Of a stretch of 64,000 nucleotides of DNA, positions 12,544-64,000 are shown one piece after another. Below the pieces are notes generated by a model that saw only the letters and a program-made list of their open reading frames with translations, made no database searches and was not told where the DNA came from. This DNA comes from Okamejei kenojei (lineage: Eukaryota): positions 39,618,001 through 39,682,000 of the forward strand of contig CM069152.1 of the NCBI GenBank assembly GCA_035221665.1, in the 5' to 3' direction. Position 1 is the stretch's first letter. Each line of letters begins with the position of its first letter. The position numbers and the translations under genes were made by a program.

Positions 12544-12664
12544 GCTGGTCGGCATAGTTCTTGGACTTGAGCTCCAGCTGTCTGCTCTGCAGCTCCAAAG
12601 ATTCCACGTGTGTCTGAAGGTCCTTCTTCTCCTGTTCCAGCGCATCTTCAAACTCGATAAATTT
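12544..12664 (-). CDS. mapk8ip3: JIP3 coding exon 2 (121 bp)
   Basis: Acceptor tgtgcatag|AAA; translates [40 protein letters not shown] plus 1 nt; donor C|gtaagt. Phase continues from exon 1. Confidence 0.92.
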
Positions 12665-24042: not shown

Positions 24043-26472
24043 ACATGCACCACAGTGATGAACTGTTATACCTTCACTCAAAGAAAATAAATAATTTGCA
24101 TTCACAAAACACCTTTCAAAACTTCATGGTTGTAATGTAGGCATCTGGAATGGGCTGTCGAGAGTCTCACACCTGACTTAAGTACTTCAACCGATCGTCA
24201 CTGACAAGCCCAACATTCGTTGCCTAACCCTAATTGGCTTTGGAAAGGTAGTGATGAGTTGCCTCATGAATCATTGCACTCATTCTGCTGAACAACATTG
24301 GTTTTGGTTGGCAGTCACCGGAATTTAGACTTCAGAAGATGAACAAGCACATTGAGGTCATTTGGTGTGCAACGTGTAAGAGAAGCTGCAAATGTGAATG
24401 TTCCATAATGCTGTGCGTTTATCACTCTTGTTATAGACGGTGCACATTGCAGCCATGATGCACGAATATAGGGAATGTTTAGGTGCTGGAGAGGGTGCCA
24501 GTCCAGCAGGCTGCTTTATCCTAGGTGGTGTTGAGCATCATATTATTGCAGGAGCTCTACATCCAGGCATAGGTATTACCACACACTTCTGAGCTGTGCC
24601 TTGTAGATGGTGAAAAGGCTTTGGGGTTTCATGAGGAGCATCTAGACACCCATTTTCAGGGAGCACAGAACATCCAGCCTCTGACCTGATCTTTGTTGCC
24701 ATGGTTATTTAGTCCACTGGTCAAAGATATGGCCGTCAATGATTCTCCAGGAGAATGTGGATCTGTGGGCCAGGTCAATGGATATTTTAAGGCAGAGATA
24801 GCTAGTTGATTAGTATGGGTGTCAGGGGCTATGGAGAGAAGGGCAGGAAAATGGAGTTAGGGGAGAGAGGTAGATCAGTCATGATTGAATGACAGAGTAG
24901 ACTTGATGGGCCGAATGGCCTAATTCTGCTCCTGTCACTTTTGACCTAATGACATGATCGTCTTTTGTTTGAGGTATGACTCTGATCATAGAAACATTTT
25001 CCCTTTCTCATTCGTTGAAGTCTCTTTTACCAAGGATCCCTCATAGTCAGACACAGAGGTTGAGGATAGTTACTCTCAACTCACATCTAGAATATAGCCA
25101 TCTCTTTCACATTTGGACCAAGGCTGGTAGTAACAGCACACACAAATCACAGGCTACAGTGGACATTGTACAAATGGATCACAGCAAGTCATGGGATACA
25201 TAGTTCTCAGCATCCATCTGACATCTGGTTGAATTCCAAACATAACACGTTAGCAAGGAGTGAATTCCTTGTGGGAATTTTTTGCACATCCTGCTGTAGT
25301 AGTTAGTTTTGAAACACCAGTGGCTGCGGAAACAATGCCAAGCAACTTGGAGAACGTGAAAGGGTGGATCCTCAACAATACACGAACAATTTCTCCTGCT
25401 TCACACATGGAGAAGTTAAATATATGTAATGCTGAAGAAAGATAATTTCCACTATTAAACATAAATGAAATTAACAATCTTTTTTGGGACATTTTCAAAG
25501 ACACTGCACTGATACAACTCAAAATTTGTTTTGAGGCTCCGCACAGAACAACTATACTGGTTTTGTTAAGGTTAGCAAACCATTCTCTCCAGGAAGAAAT
25601 TAATATTTCATGTTGTATAATGTCACGTATCAGCACTAAACCAATCTCTCTGCACAGCACTGTAATATCAGTCTCTTTAACTCTCAGAAGGCCATGACAT
25701 CATTACACAGAGCAGTACTTCCAACATGGGCGTGAATGCACAGACAATGAAGGTGCGCTCAGCTGCCATTTTCTTTAACATTCAGCAACATCAGGGGAGC
25801 CGTGTCTGCTTTTAATCTTAATCCTTGCTGCATTCACACTGAATAAACTCCCAGGACACCCTCTGCTGGGAATGCTGACTAACTGTCACCCGGAAAAGAC
25901 AAGTGACGCAAGATAAAACGGTTCAGCAGTTACAGTAGTTGCATCGAAATGCAGTTGCTTTTGTTCCGAGGACATACGTGTGTTTCTGTGTGTCAGTCTG
26001 ATGAATTGCAGGGTTCTCCTTTATAATCCATGCAAGATATTTAAGATTTGCCATATTTGCGTTAATTCTATACAATGGCATGTGCATTATTCAAAACACA
26101 GCAGTTTCCTCTTGAGTTTTATTTCTGAAGTGCGAATGTTAGGCGGTAAATAAGTAAACATGCACTACAATGAGCATGAAAATAACCTTAAAGACTTCTT
26201 GCTCAGTAGGATACTAATGTAGGATTGAGCTCATTCCCAGTATTCAGGCAAAATACAGCATCTGACTAAAATCACAGCCAAGATCTGACGAAAAAAAGAG
26301 GTCATTTTAAACCAAGATTAGGTGGAAGGGCAACAAACATATCATTGTGGTGATTTAGGATTAGAAAATGTTCAGTATTCGCTTTCTACTTTCGTCTTTA
26401 CTAATACATTTACATACAATTTAAAAACAACAATGGACATCTATCTATCTTCTATCTATGTCTATATATATG

Positions 26473-26595
26473 GCAACCTTCACGTGGCCCGCCCTGTTTC
26501 GACGAATGCAATCAACCCGGCGTGTACAATCAAATAAGATCAAATAGAACAAGTTGTCCAACAACTTTAGGCTGTGCACGCCACACACAAGAAGA
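26473..26595 (+). mobile_element. 5'-truncated second copy of the ribozyme-headed retroposon
   Basis: GCAACCTTCACGTGGCCCGCCCTGTTTCGACGAATGCAATC...GCTGTGCACGCCACACACAAGAAGA is homologous to the reverse complement of 27772-27897. It lacks the P1 5' strand. Confidence 0.8.
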
Positions 26596-27771
26596 TCTAT
26601 ATCTATCTACACCTTCTATCTATCTATCTATACTATTACTAAAACTCTCATCTCTTCCGGTTTGCGTTGTGTTTTAAAATTGCACGAAAACGGTATCCTA
26701 TATCGCTAGGATTTTTTCGCCACTTCTCCTCTCACCGTTCTCCTCTGCTCCAAGAGCACCAAGTTTTGTTCCAATCAGTGAAATATTATAAAGTTTATTG
26801 GTCTGTTATTCGCTGCGACGGCGACGCCTCTTCCGGCAACTGCTGTCAATCACCGGCGCCGAGTGTGTGCTGTGTTCCGCGGGCGGGTGCTGGCTGCGTT
26901 AGCGGGCAGGCGCTGTGAGCGCGACAGGCGCTGGGGATGGGAGCTGGTGAGTGAGGTCAGAGCCAGAGCCAGGGCCAGGAACCGGTGAGCCCCCACACCA
27001 CCCCTCCCCCACACCACCCCTTCCCCTACACCCCCCCTATAGCCCCCTCCCCCACACCTCCCTCTTCTACACCCCCCTCCCCTACACTCCCTCCCCTACA
27101 CCCCCCTCCCCACATACCCCCACCCTACACCCCCCTCTCCCCTACACCCCCCTCTCCCCTACACCCCCTCCCCCACACTACACCCCCCTCCCCACATAAC
27201 CCCTCCCCCACACATCCCCACCCTACACCCCCTCCTCCACCACACCACCCCTCCCCCACACCCCCCCTATAGTCCCCTCCCCTACACCCCCACCCTACAT
27301 CCCCCCTCCCTCCTACACCCCCGACCCCTACAACCCCTCCCCCACACACACCCCCACCCTACACTCCCCCCACTACACCCCCTCCCACACACACCCCCAC
27401 TCCCTCACACACCTCCCCATCCCTGCACATCCCCCCTCCCCGCACATCCCTCCTCCTCCACACACCCCCTTCCCCCACACACATGCCCCCCTCCCTCACA
27501 CACCTCCTCCCTCCCCCACACACCCCACTGCCCCACGCACACGCCCCACACACACACTCTCGCCCACCCCCCCCCCCCACCAGCTCCCGACAGGCCCCAC
27601 CTGGCCCGCCTGAAGCCGTCCCCCTCCCCTGGCTGCAGGACGCTCCCCGTCTGAAGCCCTCCCTGTCCCCCGGCTACAGAACGCTCCCGATGTTGCGTTG
27701 GGGGAACAGGTGAGTGGTGGAATATTGCGTTGGGGAACGGGTTGCGTTGGGGGACCAGGCCTCCAGTGTGA

Positions 27772-27910
27772 TTTCTTCTTCTTTCATGTGGCGTGCACAG
27801 CCTAAAGTTGTAGGACAACTTGTTCTATTTGATCTTCCGTTTGTGCACGTCGAGTTGATTGCATTAGTCGAAACAGGGCGGACCACGTGAAGGTTGCAAT
27901 CTCCCACCCC
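27772..27910 (-). mobile_element. Short non-autonomous retroposon (ribozyme head, (GAA)n tail), full-length copy inserted in a Helitron
   Basis: TSD ccagtgtga (27763-27771) / cccgtgtga (27911-27919), one mismatch; 3' tail GAAAGAAGAAGAAA. The related Helitron end near 49690 lacks the insertion. Confidence 0.8.
27857..27910 (-). ncRNA. Minimal HDV-like (CPEB3-type) self-cleaving ribozyme candidate, 54 nt
   Basis: Minus strand reads GGGGUGG-GA-GAUUGCA-ACC-UUCACGU-GGU-CCGCCCU-GU-UUCGA-CUAA-UGCAAUC. P1 7 bp with G1.U wobble, P2 7 bp perfect, P3 3 bp, L3 UUCACGU, 1-bp P1.1, vestigial P4, J4/2 CUAA with putative catalytic C at 27867. Confidence 0.82.
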
Positions 27911-28449
27911 CCCGTGTGACTGGGACCCAACGGCTCCCACTTAGTCTAGTAAGTATTAAAATTCACCTACAGCTGCAAGGTCAGTGTACACCATAAATTA
28001 TGTAATGTTTCTAAAACAAGGACTGTACAAAAGTCAAAAACATTATCTAATCCAGGTCAAAAAATGGCAGATACTCAGCCATTTGCCTTCAGCCTCTATT
28101 TGCCTAATATTCTCCCTGGCCAACCTTCCTCGGCACCAGGTCTTCATAAACTCTGACCTTTTCCATCCTTTATATCATGTCGGCTCTCTTCTTTCTGCCA
28201 ATTCCAAACTAGCACATCCTTGGATTTCACTATTCCACCATTCAACCACAGGGCCATAAACTCTGGAATTATTTTACTAAATCACCCTGCCTCTGCATTG
28301 CTCCCTGCATCTAGACCTCCTTCAGTTTCAACCCAGATAGAGTTGCTGATCATCTCTCTTTTAACTCCTCATGGGTCAATATTTATTTGATAACATTCCT
28401 GCTAGCACATATATTTTTATTGCATTACAAATACCATATATATGCAAGA

Positions 28450-30030: not shown

Positions 30031-32469
30031 TTAGGTAGAAAACCTGTGTCAAGCATAGCTGTGGATGAAGGAACGATAACATTTCCAAATTAGGTTTGTG
30101 TTTTAGCTAGAGGGAAAACCATATGTGGTAGTGGCTCCACATTTCAACCACAATCCAAAATGCTCTGGCATAGCAATTTCTGGTTCCAGATTCAGTTCCA
30201 ACATAGATACATACAAACTTAACACAAATCACCATTTAACTCGTGATAATATTTTAAACTCAGAAAACGCTTTACTTGCAACATCCAGTATTGTAGATAT
30301 ATATGGCAAGGAGGAAAAATGCATATTTGGAAAATCTGCTGCTAACTATCAATTATAAAAGACTGTGTCCTCACTCAGATTACATTCTGTACACAGCTTC
30401 TCATCATAGGCTTGTTAATGTTGGTTGCTGGGGTAACCGTTTGATCTCTAATGACATGTCAACCAGCCATGATTCTCAGACATTTTGAAAACACTGGCAA
30501 TCCATGACAAATACACTTTAGGAAGAAGAAGGAATTATCCGCATTATCTTCAAAGAATTATAAAATATAATTCTTCAAGAAAAACAACACAAAAGGCAAT
30601 TTCACAGATTTCCAACTTGCCTCTCTCTCTCACTGCTGCAGTATCTCTCTTTGCCACTGGCATAGATTTTACAATCTGGTGCCGATCACCATCAACAAAG
30701 ATTTGGTGATCTTGGTGGGGCAGAATTTCCCTTTCCTGCTTTCCCGTTTATTTTGGGAAAGGTGCCATCAAGCTGCAAAGAGTACGGAAAAGATAAACAC
30801 AAAATACTGGAACAACTCAGCAGGGCAGGCAGCATCTCTGGAGGGAAGGCATGGGTGATGTTTCGGGTCGAGATACTTCTTCAAACTGAAGAAGGGTCTC
30901 GACCCGAAACAACTCCCATTCCTTTTCTCCAGGAGCTGATTATGGGGAGAGGTTGGAAAGGTTGGAATTTTATTAATTGAAGTGCAGGAGACTGAAGGAT
31001 AATCTTATCAATAACTAAAGGGCATAAGTTGAAGATGAAAAGATAAAGTTAAAGATTGAATGGGAACCTGAGGGGCAATATTTTCCATAAAGGGTGGTGA
31101 TTAAATGGAAGTAGTAGTTGAGACCGGTATAATGACAACATTTAGACACATACATGGATAGGAAAGATTTAGGGGGATATGGGTCAGACATGGGCAAAAT
31201 TGGACATTCCTGGCACCTAAAACCACCTTGAAGAATTTTCAGACAAATTAAAAGCTCATTTTTAAACTAACTTTTAAAACACTTTAATGCATTCGTAATA
31301 CATCTTTCTCAAATTCGACTGCTGAACTCATTCATCTCAAATTGGCTACGTAATGGCACTCAAGCTGTGATTTAATCTGTGAATCCTAAAACAGACCAAG
31401 TCTTTTCACTGCCGACTGGTTTGAAACAAGGTTGAGCTACACCCCAACACCTTTCACAATTGTTAACGCAACTATGCTGCACCTCATTGAAAACAGCCCA
31501 CTGGACTGTAGTTAATTTACATACAAATGGAAAACTGTTCAGCCTGCACCACTTCCACTCCAGAACCAAAGTCACCAAATATCAGACATCGATCTACCAT
31601 ATACAGAGAATGCGTGCATATGTGCATATGCAGAAACTGACCACCAAGTCATCATCAACTCATTCACTGATCCATGGATGGGAATGGGCCTTACTCTTAA
31701 CATCTACATCACAAAAGTTCCTCAAGGAACCTCCACCCCCACTATATATCACCGGTCTGTCAATAAAGGGCCATGACAGGACCCTGGAAAGTAAACCACA
31801 TGAAACACAATGTAGGCGGTCATGAGCTATTAAACCAGAGCCATCACTGTCATTGGGACATCTTTAAAAACATCACGGTTTGAAAAACAAGACCTCAAAC
31901 CCATCGCAAAGTTTGCACTTTGTGGAAACATTGATCAGACTAAGCTTACATCCACTAGAGTTTAGAACAGAAAAGGGTGGCTTGATTGAAGCATTTAAAG
32001 ATCCTTAAAATAAAACTTGACAGGGTTGATGTGGAGAAGTCATTTCCACTTGTGGGAGATGAGAGGTCACCATTTAAGAAAGCGTTGAGGTGAAATTCTT
32101 CTCTTACATGATCTTTGGAATTCTTCTTTAAAGAATGATGGAAGTAGGCTCTTTAAGACAGGTAAATATTTGGAGATGGCAATAAAGATTCTTAATAAGC
32201 AAGGTGGGGGAGGGGGGTTTCATTACCACAGGTTTCATGGGAATGTGAAGTTGAGGTTTGCCCTCTCTTATTACGTGGAGGAGAGTCTATAGTGAGCAAG
32301 TGGCCTACTCCTGGTCCCAACTGGTATGACTATCTAGGGCAGGCTCCACCAAGCATGGGAGGGATAACAAAAGTCCACCAAATCCTCCAAATCCCTTGGC
32401 AGGATAGTGAACCAATGTCAATGCCATCCCTTGGCCATCATCAACATCACCGAGGCTCTTATTATATTC

Positions 32470-33625
32470 AGTTGGCTCCAATGGATTCACCATTTCAGCA
32501 GCTGGTGGAAAAGTTGGAGTTATTGGGGGTTGATGCTGGCACATGTAACTGGGTCCTGAACTTTCTATCACAACGGCAGCAGACAGTCAGGGTGGGCAGT
32601 AGGACATCAAAAACCATAGCAGTGAGCACTGGCACGTCCCAAGGCTGTGTCCTAAGCCCCCTGCTGTTTAGTCTGCTTACACACGACTGTACTGCTAGAC
32701 TCAACAACAACTTCATCAACATGTTCGCTGATGACACAACAGTGGTGGGTCTCATCAGTGACAATGATGAGTCGGCGTACAGGATGGAGGTGGAGCTGCT
32801 CACAGGATGGTGCAAATCCCACAACCTCATTCTCAACGTGGGAAAAACGAAGGAGATGGTGGTTGACTTCAGGAGGGCGGGAAAACAACGCCATACACCT
32901 CTGCACATCGATGGAGCTGATGTGGAAAGGGTCAGCAGTGTGAAGTTCCTAGGACTCCACCTGTCAGATGACCTGACGTCCACGACCAACACCACAGCAC
33001 TGGTCAAGAGAGCCCAGCAGCGACTACACCCTCTCCGTAGACTACGGAAAGCAGGTCTCCCCACTGCACACCTACGAACTTTTTATAGGGGGACAATCGA
33101 GAGCACATTAACCTACGGCATCACCTCCTGGTTCGGGAGCTGCAAGGCGTACGAACGGCACCAACTGGACAGGATTGTGAAGACCGCCAGCAGGATTATT
33201 GGTGCTCCACTCCCTTTATTGCTGGACATATACAGGAAGAGATGTATCAGCAGAGCCATCTCCATCATCAAAGACCCCTACCACCCGTCGCATCACATAT
33301 TCTCCATCCTGCCATCTGGGAAGAGGTACAGGAGCATCAGCTGCAAAACCAGCAGGATGCTCCTCAGCTTCTTCCCGCAGGCTATAAGACTGATAAACGG
33401 ACTTTGCCCCCTGCCAAAGTATCGCGCACCAACCACCAACCTGGACACACTGAAGCAGAGCCATTGTCGTGCCACTGCCGATCGGAACTCGTGATATATG
33501 TACTTTTATTCTTTATTTCTATTTATTGTTTACCGCACACTGAATGGACACTGGTTGAAAAACGTTTTTTCGTTTTCCTCTGGGTGTGTAAGTACTCAGA
33601 AAAATGATAATAAAGATATATATAA
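32470..33625 (+). mobile_element. Rex1/Babar LINE, 5'-truncated, uninterrupted RT C-terminal ORF
   Basis: ORF 32292-33494 contains QGCVLSPLLFSL..MFADDTTVVGLISDNDESAYR..LNVGKTKEMVVDFRR..KFLG..KRAQQRL..LRRLRK..FYRGTIES. The first ~60 aa of the ORF are flanking read-through. Confidence 0.88.
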
Positions 33626-33756: not shown

Positions 33757-35512
33757 TTCCCAAAGAAACATTCTTCTCCAAGCTCCATCATGGCAACAGA
33801 GTTCCAAATGGGAAAAGATTTGATTCCAGGATGCTCTCAAAGCCTCTGTAAAGCAGCATGACATTCCCGTTTCCTCATGAGAATTCCTGTTTTGCGATTA
33901 TTCGAAGTGAAGAAGTGGCCTTCAGGATAGGATTGATCAAGTCCATTCTTTAGAAGCACAATGAAACTCATCATGAATTCCAAAAGCTGAGCATCTCTTC
34001 CCAAACTAGCCATTCACCCGTGCTGTCAAGAACTTCCTGACTCACCTGTTCAAGGGTCTATGGAAATAAATCACCCTCAATATTTAGGGACTGCCTAAAA
34101 AGGAGGAGAGCATGCAAATTAAAGATCGGACATGCATAAAGTTAAGATAGAAACTAAAATATCATCAACCAACCTTAAAAATTAAATATTAATTTTATAT
34201 TTAAAGCCAAGCGGTGGAATTGCACCTTCTATTGTGCAAATTAAACAAGTAGACCCTTAACCTTTGGCATTTTGTGGACTGCAGCACATATCTAACAAAC
34301 TCGAAGGGTGAATTTCTACCTCAATAGAATTTTGAATTCATTATCCAAGAAGAAAGAGGCTGAACGTGCCAGAATCTGGAACAATAAAAACTGCTGGAGG
34401 AACTCAGGAGGTCAAGCAGCATCTGTGATGGCAAAGGAATTATCCAGGGAGATTAGCCAGCACAAAAACTATTTGTAGTTACAATGCAGTTAAAAACTCG
34501 ATTGCACTTCAAACAACGGTTTAACCTTTCCAAAGTGCTATAATAATTTTTTATACAGTCACAGTAGTTTTTTTATGTTTAATGTTTTTATTAGAAGCAT
34601 TGCATATTATCTAATGTACAACAGCACTTCAAATATAAATCAGACTTATCACAAACGTTGTACAGATATTACGGGATAATTTATATATGCTACTGTTTTT
34701 GATTTTTTTTTTGGGAAGGTAAGGGAGTGAAAAAAAAGTAAAAATATAAATCAATAATCAAGACGTTGTGATTGAATAATAATGATTATATAATAATCAC
34801 AGTAGTTTTGCCAGCTCTCGCAAACAACCGTCTTCATCCCCCATTTATTCCCCTCTCTTCCCTATCCCCCCCCCCCCCCAACAATGCAACCAAGCCTATG
34901 GAAAATCAATAACTCATTGACAGTAACTTCAAGACATTGTCCATGTGTGTGCTGCAGACACAGGTGTCAGGTGTTTGTTTTATTTATGCCAAAAGACAAT
35001 TTAGTCCAAGTCAAATCAAATCATCTCTGAAAATGCATGAAATTATACATTCTATTGGAATCTATTCATAAGGAACTGGTAATGGGACATTGAAGGGAGA
35101 AAAAGGACGAGATAGGGCTAATTTAGATTTATGGAAGGGAAATCACATAAACTGGTAAATCTGTGAGAGCATTTTTAAGGCTGTGATCAGCAAACTAGAT
35201 ACAGACAGACCAGATGTATTCAGACTAATAAACGGCCTTCAATAAAATGCCACAGAAGAGATTACTAAAGAAACTTTAAAAACATACTAGACTAAGTGGG
35301 ACCCGTTGGGTCCCATGTCGACATGGGAGGGCTGGTCCGCTGACGCAATATTCCACCTCTCCACCAATTCCAATATTGGTGGCCAGTGGGGGGACTTTCT
35401 GGAGTGCTGGTATGGGTTCTTGGGGTGACAGCTCAGTCCCTCAAGCCTGATGTGCTAGCAGCTCACTCACGGCTGGTGGGCTGGCAGTTGACTCATGGCT
35501 ATTCCTTGAAAT

Positions 35513-49073: not shown

Positions 49074-49667
49074 AGCAGTAAAGGAAAATGAATCAGGGAT
49101 ATCAGAGTTGTAACACCAATTGCAAGTGGGAAGATACAAGATGTTAAAGCTGCACCTTACCTGCCAGGATACTTAAATGAAAGGCAAGTGGTACTAGACA
49201 TAAGGGATTGAGGTGCAAATATTGACTACATTGAAGCCTGTAGAGCTCCAATACAAAATGGATGAACTAATGCAAATGCCAGATACTGAATAAATGACAA
49301 TGCAATTGAAACCTTGATACATGCCCTGATGTTGATCACAAAACCAGCATTGAGGCTTAGTATGACTTGGCCTAGCTGCATGAACTATTATGAAGCATTA
49401 ACATTTAGCTTATAATGTAAAATAGCAAAGGAAAGAAATGATGTAAATAATGCATGTCTAATTGATCAGGTTGGAGAAACTCCATGCACCAATATCATCC
49501 ATAACATTCACAACATTTTTCAATTTATTTTACTCTTTCCATCTTTTGCCTTCATCAGGAACCATTTGTAGCATATCTACAAAATTATATTTTATTTAGA
49601 TATTAAAACTTTTATATTATATATTAAAGATATTATAATTTTATAATATCTATAAAATTATTAATAA

Positions 49668-50530
49668 CTAGACTAAGTGGAACCTGTTGGGTCCCTGTCA
49701 CACAGGAGGCTTGGTCCCCCAACACAATCACCCATAGCCCCCAACTGCACAGGCGCAGATCATTTCCCCTCATCCCTAGCACTCTCTCCCCCTCCTCTTC
49801 ACCCTCCCTCTTCTCTCCCTTCTACACCTCCCCTCCCCAATCCCTCCCCTCTCTCTCCCTCTCCTTTCCCCTATCTTCAGTCACTCCCTCCCTCCATAAC
49901 TCCTCTCCCCTCCCTACTCCCCTCCTCTCCCCATCTCCCCTCGCTCTCCCCCCCTCTCCTCGCTCTCCCCTCCCCCCCAGGATCTCGAGGTTGCCGCTCC
50001 TCTCCCATCTTGCGTGCCCTGGAGGAGTATCAGCCGTCGGCGCATATCCTCGGCTCGGCCCGGAAGCACCAGGAACTACGGCTGCGTGATGGGGGGGGGG
50101 GAAGAACTCAGAGAAAAAACGGGGGAAGAGCCATGGGGGAGGGGGGGGTATCGCAGGGTAGGGGACAGGAGCCAGTGAGGGGGAACCAAAGGGGAAGGGG
50201 CTGGAGCTGCGGGGCGTGTGATGGTAGTGCGTTTGGGACTCTCCTCCGCCGGGATCAGATTCTCCGCTTTCCGTTTGGCGGACCGTCCCACTGAGTGGCA
50301 GGAGAAGAGAACAATGCGCGCAGGTGCTGACTAGCAGGAGAGGAGATCGATCTGCGCACGCACAGTTTTTAATATTTTTAAACCTCGCTAACTTTTACAA
50401 TAGACCACCGATCGGAACAAAACTCGCAGCACATGAGAACGATGAGTGAGCTAGCGAAAAATCGTAGTGCTATCGCGTACCGTTTTTGCGCAATTAGAAA
50501 TACCGCGCAAACCAGAAGAGCAGAAGATCA
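49668..50530 (-). mobile_element. Non-autonomous Helitron, 5' end unclear
   Basis: 3' end ...GGGACCCAACAGGTTCCACTTAGTCTAG|T on the minus strand; 50380-50520 is homologous to 26650-26800. Confidence 0.7.
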
Positions 50531-53141: not shown

Positions 53142-54171
53142 GACAAAAGTGCTGGAGATACTCAGCGGGTGCGGCAGCATCTATGGAGCGAAGGAATAGG
53201 CAACGTTTCGGGCCAAAACCCTTCTTCAGACTGATGTAGGGTGGGGGAAGGGGGGGCAGGAAGAAGAAAGGAAGAGGAGGAGCCAGTGGGCTGAGGGAGA
53301 GCTGAGTAGGGCAGGAGACAACAAGGGCAAGGTTCAAGCCGCTGGGGTGCAGACTTCACAAGTGGAATACGAGGTGCTGCTCCTCCAATTTCCGGTGGTG
53401 CTCACTCTGGCCATGGAGGAGGCCCAGGACAGAAAGGTCAGATTCGGAATGGTTGAGGGAGTTGAAGTGCTGAGCCGCTCCCTCTGTAACACCCTGGTAA
53501 ATTCTTCCCTTCCCACCCGCACCACCCCCTCCCCGGGTACTTTCCCTTGCAACCGCAGGAGATGCTACACTTGTCGCTTTACCTCCCCCCTCGACTCCAT
53601 TCAAGGACCCAAGCAGTCTTCCAGGTGCGACAGAGGTTCACCTGCACCTCCTCCAACCTCATCTATTGCATCCGCTGCTCTAGATGTCAGCTGATCTACA
53701 TCGGTGAGACCAAGCGTAGGCTTGGCGATCGCTTCGCCCAACACCTCCGCTCGGTCCGCATTAACGAACCTGATCTCCCTGTGGCTCAGCACTTCAACTC
53801 CCCCTCCCATTCCGAATCCGACCTTTCTGTCCTGGGCCTCCTCCGTGCCCAGAGTGAGCACCACCGGAAATTGGAGGAGCAGCACCTCATATTGTTGGGC
53901 AGTCTGCACCCTAGTGGCATAAACATTGACTTCTCCAATTTCCGGTAGCCCTTGCTGTCTCCTCCCCTTCTCAGCTCTCCCTCAGCCCTCTGGCTCCTCA
54001 TCTTCCTTTCTCCTTCCTGCCCCTCCCCCCCCCCCCCACATCAGTCTGAAGAAGGGTTTTGGCCCGAAACGTTGCCCATTTCCTTCGCTCCATAGATGCT
54101 GCCGCACCCGCTGTTTCTCCAGCACTTTTGTCTAACTTCGATTTTCCAGCATCTGCAGTTCCTTCTTAAAC
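53142..54171 (+). mobile_element. Penelope-like element: inverted terminus, GIY-YIG endonuclease remnant, direct terminus
   Basis: 53547-53948 encodes ...SNLIYCIRCSRCQLIYIGETKRRLGDRFAQH...VAQHFNSPSH...GINIDF, with a frameshift near 53620 after PGTFPCNRRRCYTC. 15-bp TSD ATCAGACTGAATATA (53127-53141 and 54172-54186). Confidence 0.9.
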
Positions 54172-55546: not shown

Positions 55547-55846
55547 CTCCTCGGCTTGTTTCCTGAGCGACTTCTCCCTCTCGTACTGGGTCAGCAGCTG
55601 CTCGTTGTCCTCCCGGATCAGCTCCAGCTCCACTTCGTGCTCCTGGTTTTCGGTGAAGACCGAGTCGAGGTTCTCCAGCACGTTGACGACCAGCGGCATC
55701 AGCTCCTTCACCACCTCCTCGTCGTACTTGTGGATGAGGCGCTCGAACTCGCGGTAGATGCTGTTGGCCAGGCCCGACACCCGCTCCGACATGACCGACA
55801 CCGAGCAGTCATCCTGGTAAACCACCCCGTCATCCAGCTCCATCAT
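55547..55846 (-). CDS. mapk8ip3: JIP3 (JNK-interacting protein 3) coding exon 1, RH1 domain
   Basis: Translates [100 protein letters not shown] (100 aa). Start context gccgggaagATGATG; donor GAG|gtgagg, phase 0. YQDD-CS, ERLIH, VVNVL and ENQEHEVEL match recalled human MAPK8IP3 better than SPAG9. Confidence 0.9.
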
Positions 55847-61702: not shown

Positions 61703-64000
61703 TCTAAATTACTATAAGTCTGATCTTGACCACTTCCTGTTGTTCTGTATATTGATTTTATAAAAAACGCTGCCACTTACGGCTGTGATTTTTGGCCATC
61801 TTACTCAGAGTCCCCCTCCGCTGCGCAGGACAAGAGGATTTTTCCCATCGATGAAAAATAAAAGAGTTATTAGTGTTTAAAAATGTTGAGATTCTCTCTC
61901 CTGAAGGTCATGCCCCTTCCGGAGGGACTATAAAACCTGGAAGTATGGAGGTGCCTCAGTTCTCTGCAAGATGGGGGAGCGAGAGGTCACAATTCTCAGT
62001 TTGAGCTGTGAATAACACTGAACACATGTCTACTAAACTGTGAATGGTTTTACGGACCTGTCAGTGCCTTTAATGTGGTTTGAAAATGTAGTTTGAAAAT
62101 GCAAAAGTGTGTTTTGGTTTGAAAGTGCTAAAGCTGTGTTGCCTTTGGTTTTGAAAGTGCTAAAGCAAGCTGTGTTGCCTTTGGTTTTGAAAGTGCTAAA
62201 GCGAGCTGTGTTGCCTTTGGCTGTGCTTTGGTTTTGCTTGCCTTGCTTTGGTTTTGAAAGTGCTCAAGCGAGCTGCCTAGCCTTTGGTTTTGAAAGTGCT
62301 AAAGCGAGCTGCCTTGCCTTTGGTTTTGAAAGTGCTAAAGCGAGCTGTGTTGCCTTTGGTTTTGAAAGTGCTAAAGCGAGCTGTGTTGCCTTTGGTTTTG
62401 AAAGTGCTAAAGCGAGCTGCCTTGCCTTTGGTTCTCAAAGTGCCAAAGCAAGCTGCCTTGCCTTTGGTTTTGAAAGTGCTAAAGTAAGCTGCCTTGCCTA
62501 ATTAGAGCTGCCTTGGCTAATTAGAGCTGCCTTGCCTTCTATATAATTAAAAGTCTGATCTTGACCACTTCCTGTTTGTTCTTGATGTTGTTGATTTTAG
62601 AAAAAACGCTACCACGTACAGCTGTGATGTTTTCTCAACTCTCTCTTGAAAGCCTCCAGAGAATTAGCCTCCACTGCCTTCTGAGGCAGAGAATTCCACA
62701 GATTCACAACTCTCTGTGTGAAAACGTTTTCCTCATCTCCACTCTAAATGGCTTACCCCTTATTCTTAAACTGTGGCTCCTGGTTCTGGAACCTCCACAA
62801 CATCGGGAACATGTGTCCTGCCTCTAGTGTGTCCAAACTCTTAATAACCTTATATGTTTCAATAAGATCCCCTCTCATCCTAAATTCCAGAGTATACAAG
62901 CCCAGCTGCTCTATTCTATCAACATATGACAGTCCCGCCATCCTGGGAATTAACCTCTTGAACCTACGCTACACTCCCTCAATAGCAAGAATGTCCTTCC
63001 TCAAATTTGGAGACCAAAACTGCACACAATACTCACTAGGGCCTTGTACAACTGCGGAAGGACCTGTTTGCTCCTATACTCAACTCCTCTTGTTATGAAG
63101 GCCAACGTGCCATTTGCTTTCTTCACTGACTGCTGTACCTGCATGCTTACTTTCATTGACTGATGAACAAGGACCCCCAGATCTCGCTGTACTTCCCCTT
63201 TTCCAACTTAACACCATCTATATTACTGTAAGTCTGATCTTGACCACTTCCTGTTGTTCTGTATATTGATTTTAGAAAAAACGCTGCCACTTACGGCTGT
63301 GATTTTTGGCCATCTTACTCAGAGTCCCCTCCGCTGCGCAGGACAATAGGATTTTGCCCATCGATGAAAAATAATTCTCAGTCTGAGCTGTGAATAACAC
63401 TGAACACATGTCCACTAAACTGTGAGTAGTTTTACTGACATGTCAGTGCCCTTAATGTAGTTTGAAAATGTAGTTTGAAAATGCAAAAGTGTGTTTTGGT
63501 TTGAAAGTGCTAAAGCTGTGTTGCCTGTGGTTTTGAAAATGCTAAAGCAAGCTGCCTTGCCTTTGGTTTTGAAAGTGCTAAAGCAAACTGTCTTGCCTAA
63601 TTAGAGCTGTCTTGCCTAATTAGAGCTGCCGTGTCTAATTAGAGCTGCCTTGCCTTCTATATAATTAAAAGTCTAATCTTGACCACTTCCTGGTTGCTCT
63701 TTATATTGATTTTAGAAAAAATGGTACCACGTACGGCTGTGATGTTTGGCCATCTTACTCACAGTTCCCCTCCGCTCATCAGGTGCCGGAGATTTTTCCC
63801 ATCGATTGAAATTAAAGAGTTTTAGTGTTTAAAAAATGTTGAGATTCTCTCTCCTGTCAATCACGCCATGAAGGCCACACCCCATCTGGTGGGAGGGACT
63901 ATAAAACCCAGAAGTGTGGGTTCTGCATGATGGGGGAGGGAGAGGTCACGACTTGCTGTCTTTAGTGGCCTTGCACCCTGCTTGAAATGGTACGAAACTG
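61703..64000 (+). mobile_element. Cluster of Helitron 5' modules with 36-bp and ~20-bp minisatellites, interleaved with a CR1 fragment (62636-63216)
   Basis: TCTA(T/A)AT..AAGTCT(G/A)ATCTTGACCACTTCCTG starts at 61703, ~62538, 63217 and ~63656. The 36-bp unit GCCTTTGGTTTTGAAAGTGCTAAAGCGAGCTGCCTT repeats across ~62110-62500. Confidence 0.7.

Follow-up and report, generated by a model that had tools for sequence, protein, structure and literature searches.

Predicted P4-less HDV-like ribozymes at the head of a short, likely Vingi-type retroposon family in Okamejei kenojei, and a probable link to the CPEB3 ribozyme

Non-autonomous LINE derivatives headed by a ribozyme are already known, and both the R2 SIDEs of Drosophila and NARTc self-cleave at +1 (PMC3414825, PMC3383444). 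The list of LINE clades with 5' ribozymes in the accessible part of Kojima 2018 holds six clades, Vingi not being among them, and the same source names Vingi as one of four clades that yield bipartite non-autonomous derivatives (PMC5786205). Vingi elements are described as compact, with a single ORF for an APE endonuclease plus a reverse transcriptase (RT) and, in the available text, no RNase H (PMC13708176). The human genome retains a Vingi fossil, X12_LINE (PMC5753468), which indicates that the clade was active in mammalian ancestry. For the CPEB3 ribozyme, a retroposon origin has so far been suggested, in the available portion of the literature, only in general terms (PMC7761336).

Here we analysed a 64,000-nt stretch of the Okamejei kenojei genome (GCA_035221665.1, contig CM069152.1, positions 39,618,001 to 39,682,000; hereafter the window), which carries a minimal HDV-like motif inside an intron. 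The interest of this motif lies in the repeat family to which it belongs and in the link of that family with CPEB3.

The HDV-like fold and the repeat that it heads

Read directly from the letters of the window, the minus strand from 27910 to 27857 agrees with an HDV-like ribozyme, and 18/18 pairs of the nested double pseudoknot P1, P1.1, P2 and P3 are formed (Table 1). The features reported in the preliminary description, namely intact P1, P2 and P3, the G1.U wobble, the J4/2 C and a P4 reduced to UUCGA, were all confirmed on this strand. That description had also proposed a descriptor search and an Rfam search. The HDV descriptor, run on both strands of the 64 kb, returned the site at 27910 as its single match, against a background of 3 matches in 40 Markov-2 random 64-kb sequences. 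The Rfam models answered less clearly: weak minus-strand matches were present at the ribozyme, to HDV-F-prausnitzii (16 bits, cut-off 44) and to the CPEB3 model RF00622 (13.7 bits, cut-off 35), both sub-threshold, and no match reached the gathering score anywhere in the window. The Rfam HDV-type models include P4, as seen in their alignments, and the window ribozyme is P4-less. Judged from its sequence, the 54-nt motif is a genuine HDV-like fold for which cleavage is predicted.

Table 1. Coordinates of the ribozyme, the retroposon and its surroundings in the window
Feature	Position	Strand	Remarks
Minimal (P4-less) HDV-like ribozyme fold	27857..27910	-	predicted cleavage 5' of G at 27910
P1, 7 bp	27910-27904/27881-27875	-	G1.U wobble
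P2, 7 bp	27901-27895/27863-27857	-	
P3, 3 bp	27894-27892/27884-27882	-	
L3	27891-27885	-	UUCACGU
P1.1	27889/27874	-	single C-G beside U.U
P4 remnant, 5 nt	27872-27868	-	between P1.1 and J4/2
Predicted catalytic C	27867	-	first base of J4/2; invariant in 5/5 family heads; position defined as in PMC10879173
Full-length ~137-nt non-autonomous retroposon	27772..27910	-	ribozyme head, short body, (GAA)n tail; younger subfamily
3' body	27789..27852	-	predicted long stem plus inner hairpin; 63-68 of the element paired with 113-118
3' terminal motif and (GAA)n tail	27772..27790	-	resembles ends of Vingi-type families A, B, C
Target-site duplication, upstream copy	27911..27919	-	abuts G1; leader predicted to disrupt P1
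Target-site duplication, downstream copy	27763..27771	-	8/9 identical
Second copy of the mini-element	26470..26595	+	older subfamily, 88% identical, antisense to gene, without P1 5' strand
Host repeat holding the insertion	26627..27949	+	hairpin, then CTAG at 27946-27949; Helitron-like ends
Host gene exon 1 CDS	55547..55846	-	JIP3/MAPK8IP3-like, RH1 domain
Host gene exon 2	12544..12664	-	

The motif makes up the 5'-terminal 54 nt of an interspersed repeat of ~137 nt (hereafter the mini-element). Over the 2.76-Gb assembly we counted 4,553 exact 35-nt heads, 330 exact copies of the window 54-mer and 8,147 exact tail 23-mers, about equally on both strands and each with a reversed control of 0. 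Sixty copies, consecutive from the first tail match on contig C1, were picked by their tails so as not to select on the head. The element began at G1 in 50/60 of them and within 3 nt of it in 57/60, and all 18 pairs plus the core were intact in 24/60, a fraction which, scaled to 8,147 tails from a sample spanning 13 Mb, corresponds to ~3,300 intact copies genome-wide. In a second, head-picked set of 85 copies (5 with duplicated flanks were dropped), a target-site duplication was called in 69/85, a call rate obtained without a shuffled control; 38 of these duplications ended at G1 and 58 no more than 1 nt from it. Loose ends with unrelated flanks also piled up at 27910 in 4/4 public runs (465, 499, 474 and 45 contigs, these runs being contigs and not raw RNA reads). 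Runs with small word shares (X18-X20) did not enter this comparison. In one run, presumed to be RNA, contigs covered the element but not the unique flank; as contigs carry no information on strand or ends, this was not counted as evidence of expression. The mini-element thus has the retroposon hallmarks of target-site duplication and simple-repeat tail; no tRNA match and no Pol III B box were found in it. The stem of its 3' body, with a pair probability of 1.0 for 63-118 and 66-115 in the folding prediction, is likely the RNA that a LINE protein would recognise.

Two subfamilies were distinguished, with copies ~3.7% and 5.8% from their own majorities (35 and 24 of 59 copies), and within the head these majorities are distinguished by two unpaired positions alone, 8 (J1/2) and 45 (J4/2). 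No covariation was seen within mini-element copies, where paired and catalytic sites decay. The search for covariation across genomic copies put forward in the preliminary description was thus negative, and it is the wrong test, because the copies of one young family simply decay; covariation is found between families. Two head positions at which the fold needs a U, 29 and 36, were changed in 8 and 7 of the 59 copies, most of which still start at G1; such hot spots may reflect sub-lineages, slippage next to runs of C or the persistence of weakened copies. An excess of change at A/T sites of the fold (4.2% vs 2.3%, p = 0.02, post hoc) was discarded as a signal, as it mostly vanishes without these two positions. 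Separately, a T precedes G1 in 27/49 copies, compared with 28% T in the flanks, and is frequent in families A, B and D (described below) too; a target preference is one possible explanation.

Vingi-type LINEs and CPEB3-like heads

LINEs were sought by an endonuclease-family (PF14529) search followed by a protein search for relatives. The top loci (30/30) belonged to one two-ORF, RNase H-bearing LINE family without a match to the mini-element, which was rejected as its parent. A young two-ORF LINE with RNase H (L091, G000:C2:28223000-28231500) has a 1,276-aa open frame and copies up to 99.7% identical; it ends in (GAA)n and gave no match to the mini-element either. Among 20 further PF14529 matches one was Vingi-type, and its relatives make up families A-D. 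These are compact LINEs with endonuclease and RT, families B and C being ~3.1-3.2 kb long, and their duplications abut the first G. The partner LINEs match PF14529, PF00078 and, weakly, zf-RVT, in a single ORF read from frameshifted pieces; RNase H had no match in 7 C-terminal pieces of family C, against E 4e-13 in a control LINE. By this architecture families A-D fit the description of Vingi, and the provisional clade name used for them here derives from it and, in part, from an endonuclease start motif typical of the clade. Two further arrangements were observed: L146 and L155 hold family D copies in arrays, tandem or rearranged, that have their upstream flank in common, and L137, near 2454-2470, holds a family A copy in which the start of the ribozyme head occurs twice.

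The HDV descriptor matched 13/70 scanned loci, at the 5' ends of families A-D. When one head per family was aligned with that of the window copy, all cells were paired (90/90), 12/18 pairs were compensatory and 0/20,000 shuffles equalled this, the heads having been picked by a descriptor that demands P1, P2 and P3 pairing; P1.1, which it does not demand, also swapped from C-G to U-A in family B. G1, U20, G25 and the J4/2 C were invariant in 5/5 heads, and the first pair was G1.U in 4/5 and G-C in one. The five heads share 21-46 of 49 core columns, with C and D close (46/49); the window head shares 24-31 of 49 with families A-D and is nearest to the group A/C/D (31/49). In addition, the last ~15 nt of the mini-element resemble the tail ends of families A-D. 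A direct parent LINE with the window head was not found among 30 of 152 variant heads, 11/11 variant tails and the 60 tail-picked copies, which yielded short copies only, and because of this the Vingi link rests on shared head architecture and tail motif. The mini-element is likely a cut-down Vingi-type retrotransposon, and family C, of which two copies are 98.7% identical, the youngest seen, is a candidate for its mobiliser.

The preliminary description had assigned the motif a CPEB3-type architecture, and this held in part. Against the Rfam CPEB3 consensus, segment lengths are equal except for P4 and L3 is the same, but only ~26/49 core columns are identical (by eye) and the score is 13.7 bits against a cut-off of 35. 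As family A shares ~28 columns, a likeness of ~26-28/49 is general to these heads. The window copy is not a member of the CPEB3 family, as seen from that score, from its JIP3-like host and from its 330 identical copies, compared with a single CPEB3 intron 2 copy.

A much closer likeness was met elsewhere in the genome. Applied to 59 scored candidates, RF00622 gave 42 matches, with 30 loci over the cut-off of 35 and a best score of 66.8 bits, and no match in 14 control genomes. CPEB3-passing heads of 38-67 bits, in at least three sequence groups, stand on Vingi-type elements at L263, L266, L268, L288, L264, L265 and L269. In L263, L266, L268 and L288 the head continues into an endonuclease start like that of families A and C, with tblastn support for L268 and L288; the CPEB3-like head of L264 is joined to the C-terminal part of an ORF, with a tail and a duplication. 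L264 matches the Rfam CPEB3 consensus at 44 of its first 46 nt and L265 at 56/67, P4 stem included (both by eye), and the P2 differences of L263 from CPEB3 are compensatory. This CPEB3-like group shares 23-26 of 49 columns with the window head.

Six short loci (L284-L287, L289 and L291, from about 1510) make up a second mini-retroposon family of ~170-200 nt. It combines a CPEB3-like core with a 5-nt P4 one base off that of the window element, and its copies have a T at the expected G1. A 5-nt P4 in both mini-families suggests either that P4 was lost convergently or that the families exchanged sequence.

P2 and P4 can vary freely in sequence, and identity in these stems argues for descent of the CPEB3 ribozyme and not for convergence, and the direction from Vingi to CPEB3 is favoured because the Vingi heads are diverse. 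On these sequence comparisons we regard it as rather probable that Vingi elements carry 5' HDV-like ribozymes, that the mammalian CPEB3 ribozyme is a domesticated Vingi head, and that the P4-less mini-derivatives supply some 3,000 intact predicted self-cleaving RNAs per genome, a pool of putative intronic cutters. The earlier suggestion that CPEB3-type ribozymes arise from retroposon heads is strengthened by the Vingi-type elements with CPEB3-passing heads. The accompanying proposal of a convergent, gene-specific parallel to CPEB3 is not supported, since the motif recurs on both strands in 330 identical copies and thousands of near-identical ones, and shared ancestry in Vingi heads accounts for the likeness to CPEB3 better than convergence does. 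We found no report linking the CPEB3 ribozyme to Vingi in the literature, seen mostly as titles and abstracts; other papers, Repbase, Dfam or patents may hold an earlier description of Vingi ribozymes or of this family.

Proposed spread of the mini-element and its copy in the mapk8ip3 intron

What we see directly is the anatomy: a repeat with target-site duplications that starts at G1, the same fold heading full-length single-ORF LINEs, and a common 3' motif. By analogy with described elements, the ribozyme head very probably frees the element RNA from host transcripts, Vingi protein copies this RNA and new copies start at G1. A copy lying in a transcribed region would be read through by Pol II, the ribozyme would cut 5' of G1 and release the element RNA, and the Vingi endonuclease/reverse transcriptase would bind the 3' stem and the (GAA)n tail and copy the RNA into a new site. 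New copies would begin at G1 because the released RNA starts at the cleavage site, and loss of P4 could be tolerated, since cleavage does not require it. We infer cleavage and mobilisation because R2 SIDEs and NARTc, in the accessible descriptions, behave in this way (PMC3414825, PMC3383444, PMC4035085). With a one-pair P1.1 and no P4 the ribozyme may be slow, and the changes at positions 29 and 36 speak against a strict need for a perfect fold.

An unlikely alternative is that a promoter inside the element, comparable to Pr77 of L1Tc, sets the +1 start, with the head an inherited, dispensable fold and the P4-less ribozyme of little or no activity. Pr77 combines promoter and ribozyme and has a +1 start (PMC3383444), and the missing P4, the single-pair P1.1 and the recurrent changes at positions 29 and 36 speak for this reading. 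Against it, the majorities of both subfamilies retain all 18 pairs and an intact catalytic core, and their heads differ at unpaired positions only; the second mini-family has the same 5-nt P4 with an intact J4/2 C; and P4-less HDV-like ribozymes are a described class (PMC10879173). Release by the ribozyme remains the preferred reading.

In the window, the exon 1 CDS matched only JIP3/MAPK8IP3 in the PDB (E 2.8e-46; the paralogue JIP4/SPAG9 is also possible). The host intron spans 55546-12665 (42,882 nt). It holds the ribozyme in sense orientation, with G1 27,636 nt from the start of the intron and 15,245 nt short of exon 2, in agreement with the ~27.6 kb into a 42.9 kb intron given earlier. 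A 9-bp duplication, mismatched at one position, flanks the element, and its upstream copy lengthens the G-run by three G. The element sits ~40 nt from the end of a repeat with Helitron-like ends. Its insertion junction is unique in the assembly, and contigs of the public runs that start from unique flank end in the host repeat at 27923-27931. The window copy differs from the majority of the younger subfamily at 3 positions in 128 nt, two of them variable among copies, and a damaged antisense copy lies 1.3 kb from it in the same intron.

Several observations concern the neighbourhood. Pieces related to the 26627-27949 repeat occur at 35275-35371 and 49658-49727, and this repeat has one mini-element copy near its 3' end and another just before its 5' end. 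On the plus strand, inside the gene or upstream of it, the window also contains a LINE RT fragment (32199-33491), a GIY-YIG-like fragment (53490-53945) and a tandem repeat (62097-62498).

Ten nucleotides of native leader lowered the predicted P1 probability of the window copy from 0.95 to 0.02 in a nested-only folding model, a value matched by only 5/47 other intact copies with 10-nt leaders (median 0.90, same model). With 50-nt leaders the other intact copies dropped too (median 0.11, again in a nested-only model) and the contrast with the window copy was gone. On these predictions, the native leader likely slows cleavage of the window copy. The mapk8ip3 copy is likely a recent chance insertion and probably close to neutral; nothing marks this site out among the copies, and the locus is ordinary.

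It has been proposed for CPEB3 that an intronic ribozyme cuts the pre-mRNA in competition with splicing, and a co-opted mapk8ip3 regulator of this kind, the role raised in the preliminary description, seems to us very improbable. The copy does have its sense orientation, an intact fold, a unique junction and 15.2 kb to the next exon, compared with 9.9 kb in mouse Cpeb3 (PMC10919898), but this is a young insertion lodged within another repeat, its 10-nt native leader cuts the predicted P1 probability to 0.02, and with ~40% of copies intact (24/60) many intact sense-intronic copies would be expected by chance. The regulatory claim, faced with a young nested insertion whose leader is predicted to break P1, is thus unsupported. 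Finally, a chance match of the fold inside a repeat has a negligible probability: every Rfam score is under its cut-off, but the descriptor background is 3 matches per 40 windows, and this reading is refuted by the element start at G1, the first base of the fold, and by the covariation of its pairs between families.

Significance and comparison with known systems

The mapk8ip3 site itself is of little weight. Vingi heads scoring up to 66.8 bits provide a named donor and assayable outgroup sequences for the CPEB3 ribozyme, and the mini-element family would place minimal HDV-like ribozymes in eukaryotes and assign them a role. Moreover, thousands of natural variants with varied leaders and orientations make it possible to ask directly if self-cleavage inside introns does harm, is neutral or has been co-opted. 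As Vingi-1 is under development for gene insertion (PMC13708176), the Vingi 5' UTR is relevant to that work. What is of interest here is not a ribozyme-headed derivative as such, but this family and its CPEB3 link.

Compared with the CPEB3 ribozyme (RF00622), the window copy has the same segment lengths apart from P4, the same L3, a C-G plus U.U at P1.1 and a sense position in an intron; in contrast, its stem sequences differ, it lacks P4 and it is multicopy and young, whereas the CPEB3 ribozyme is single and conserved for ~159 My (PMC8233481; bioRxiv 10.1101/2022.09.22.508989). With the minimal HDV-like and theta ribozymes (Kienbeck et al. 2024, PMC10879173) the window head shares a P4 cut to a short loop. 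Nearly 99% of the minimal HDV-like matches in that study are from phage, and the eukaryotes covered in its available text are human, mouse and protists, whereas the window motif heads a vertebrate retroposon.

Like the mini-element as proposed here, the R2 SIDEs of Drosophila are non-autonomous, join a 5' HDV-like ribozyme to a LINE 3' end, start at the cleavage site and have no Pol III head, as far as the accessible text describes them (PMC3414825). They differ in being rDNA-specific and longer (R2Dwi_SIDE, 529 bp), whereas the mini-element is dispersed, ~137 nt long, P4-less, Vingi-type and vertebrate, with cleavage predicted. NARTc, RIME and SIDER of trypanosomatids, which belong to the L1Tc/ingi clade, sister to Vingi, are likewise short, dispersed and flanked by target-site duplications (PMC4035085, PMC3383444); their ribozyme cleaves at +1, and its 77-nt head keeps P4 and also acts as a promoter, unlike the P4-less head of the mini-element (PMC4035085, PMC3383444). 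Bipartite non-autonomous Vingi derivatives, such as those of Vingi-1_EE (Kojima 2018, PMC5786205), join the 5' and 3' ends of a LINE, a make-up that the mini-element would share; its direct parent was not found among the variant heads, variant tails and tail-picked copies, and its head fold and last ~15 nt resemble those of families A-D.
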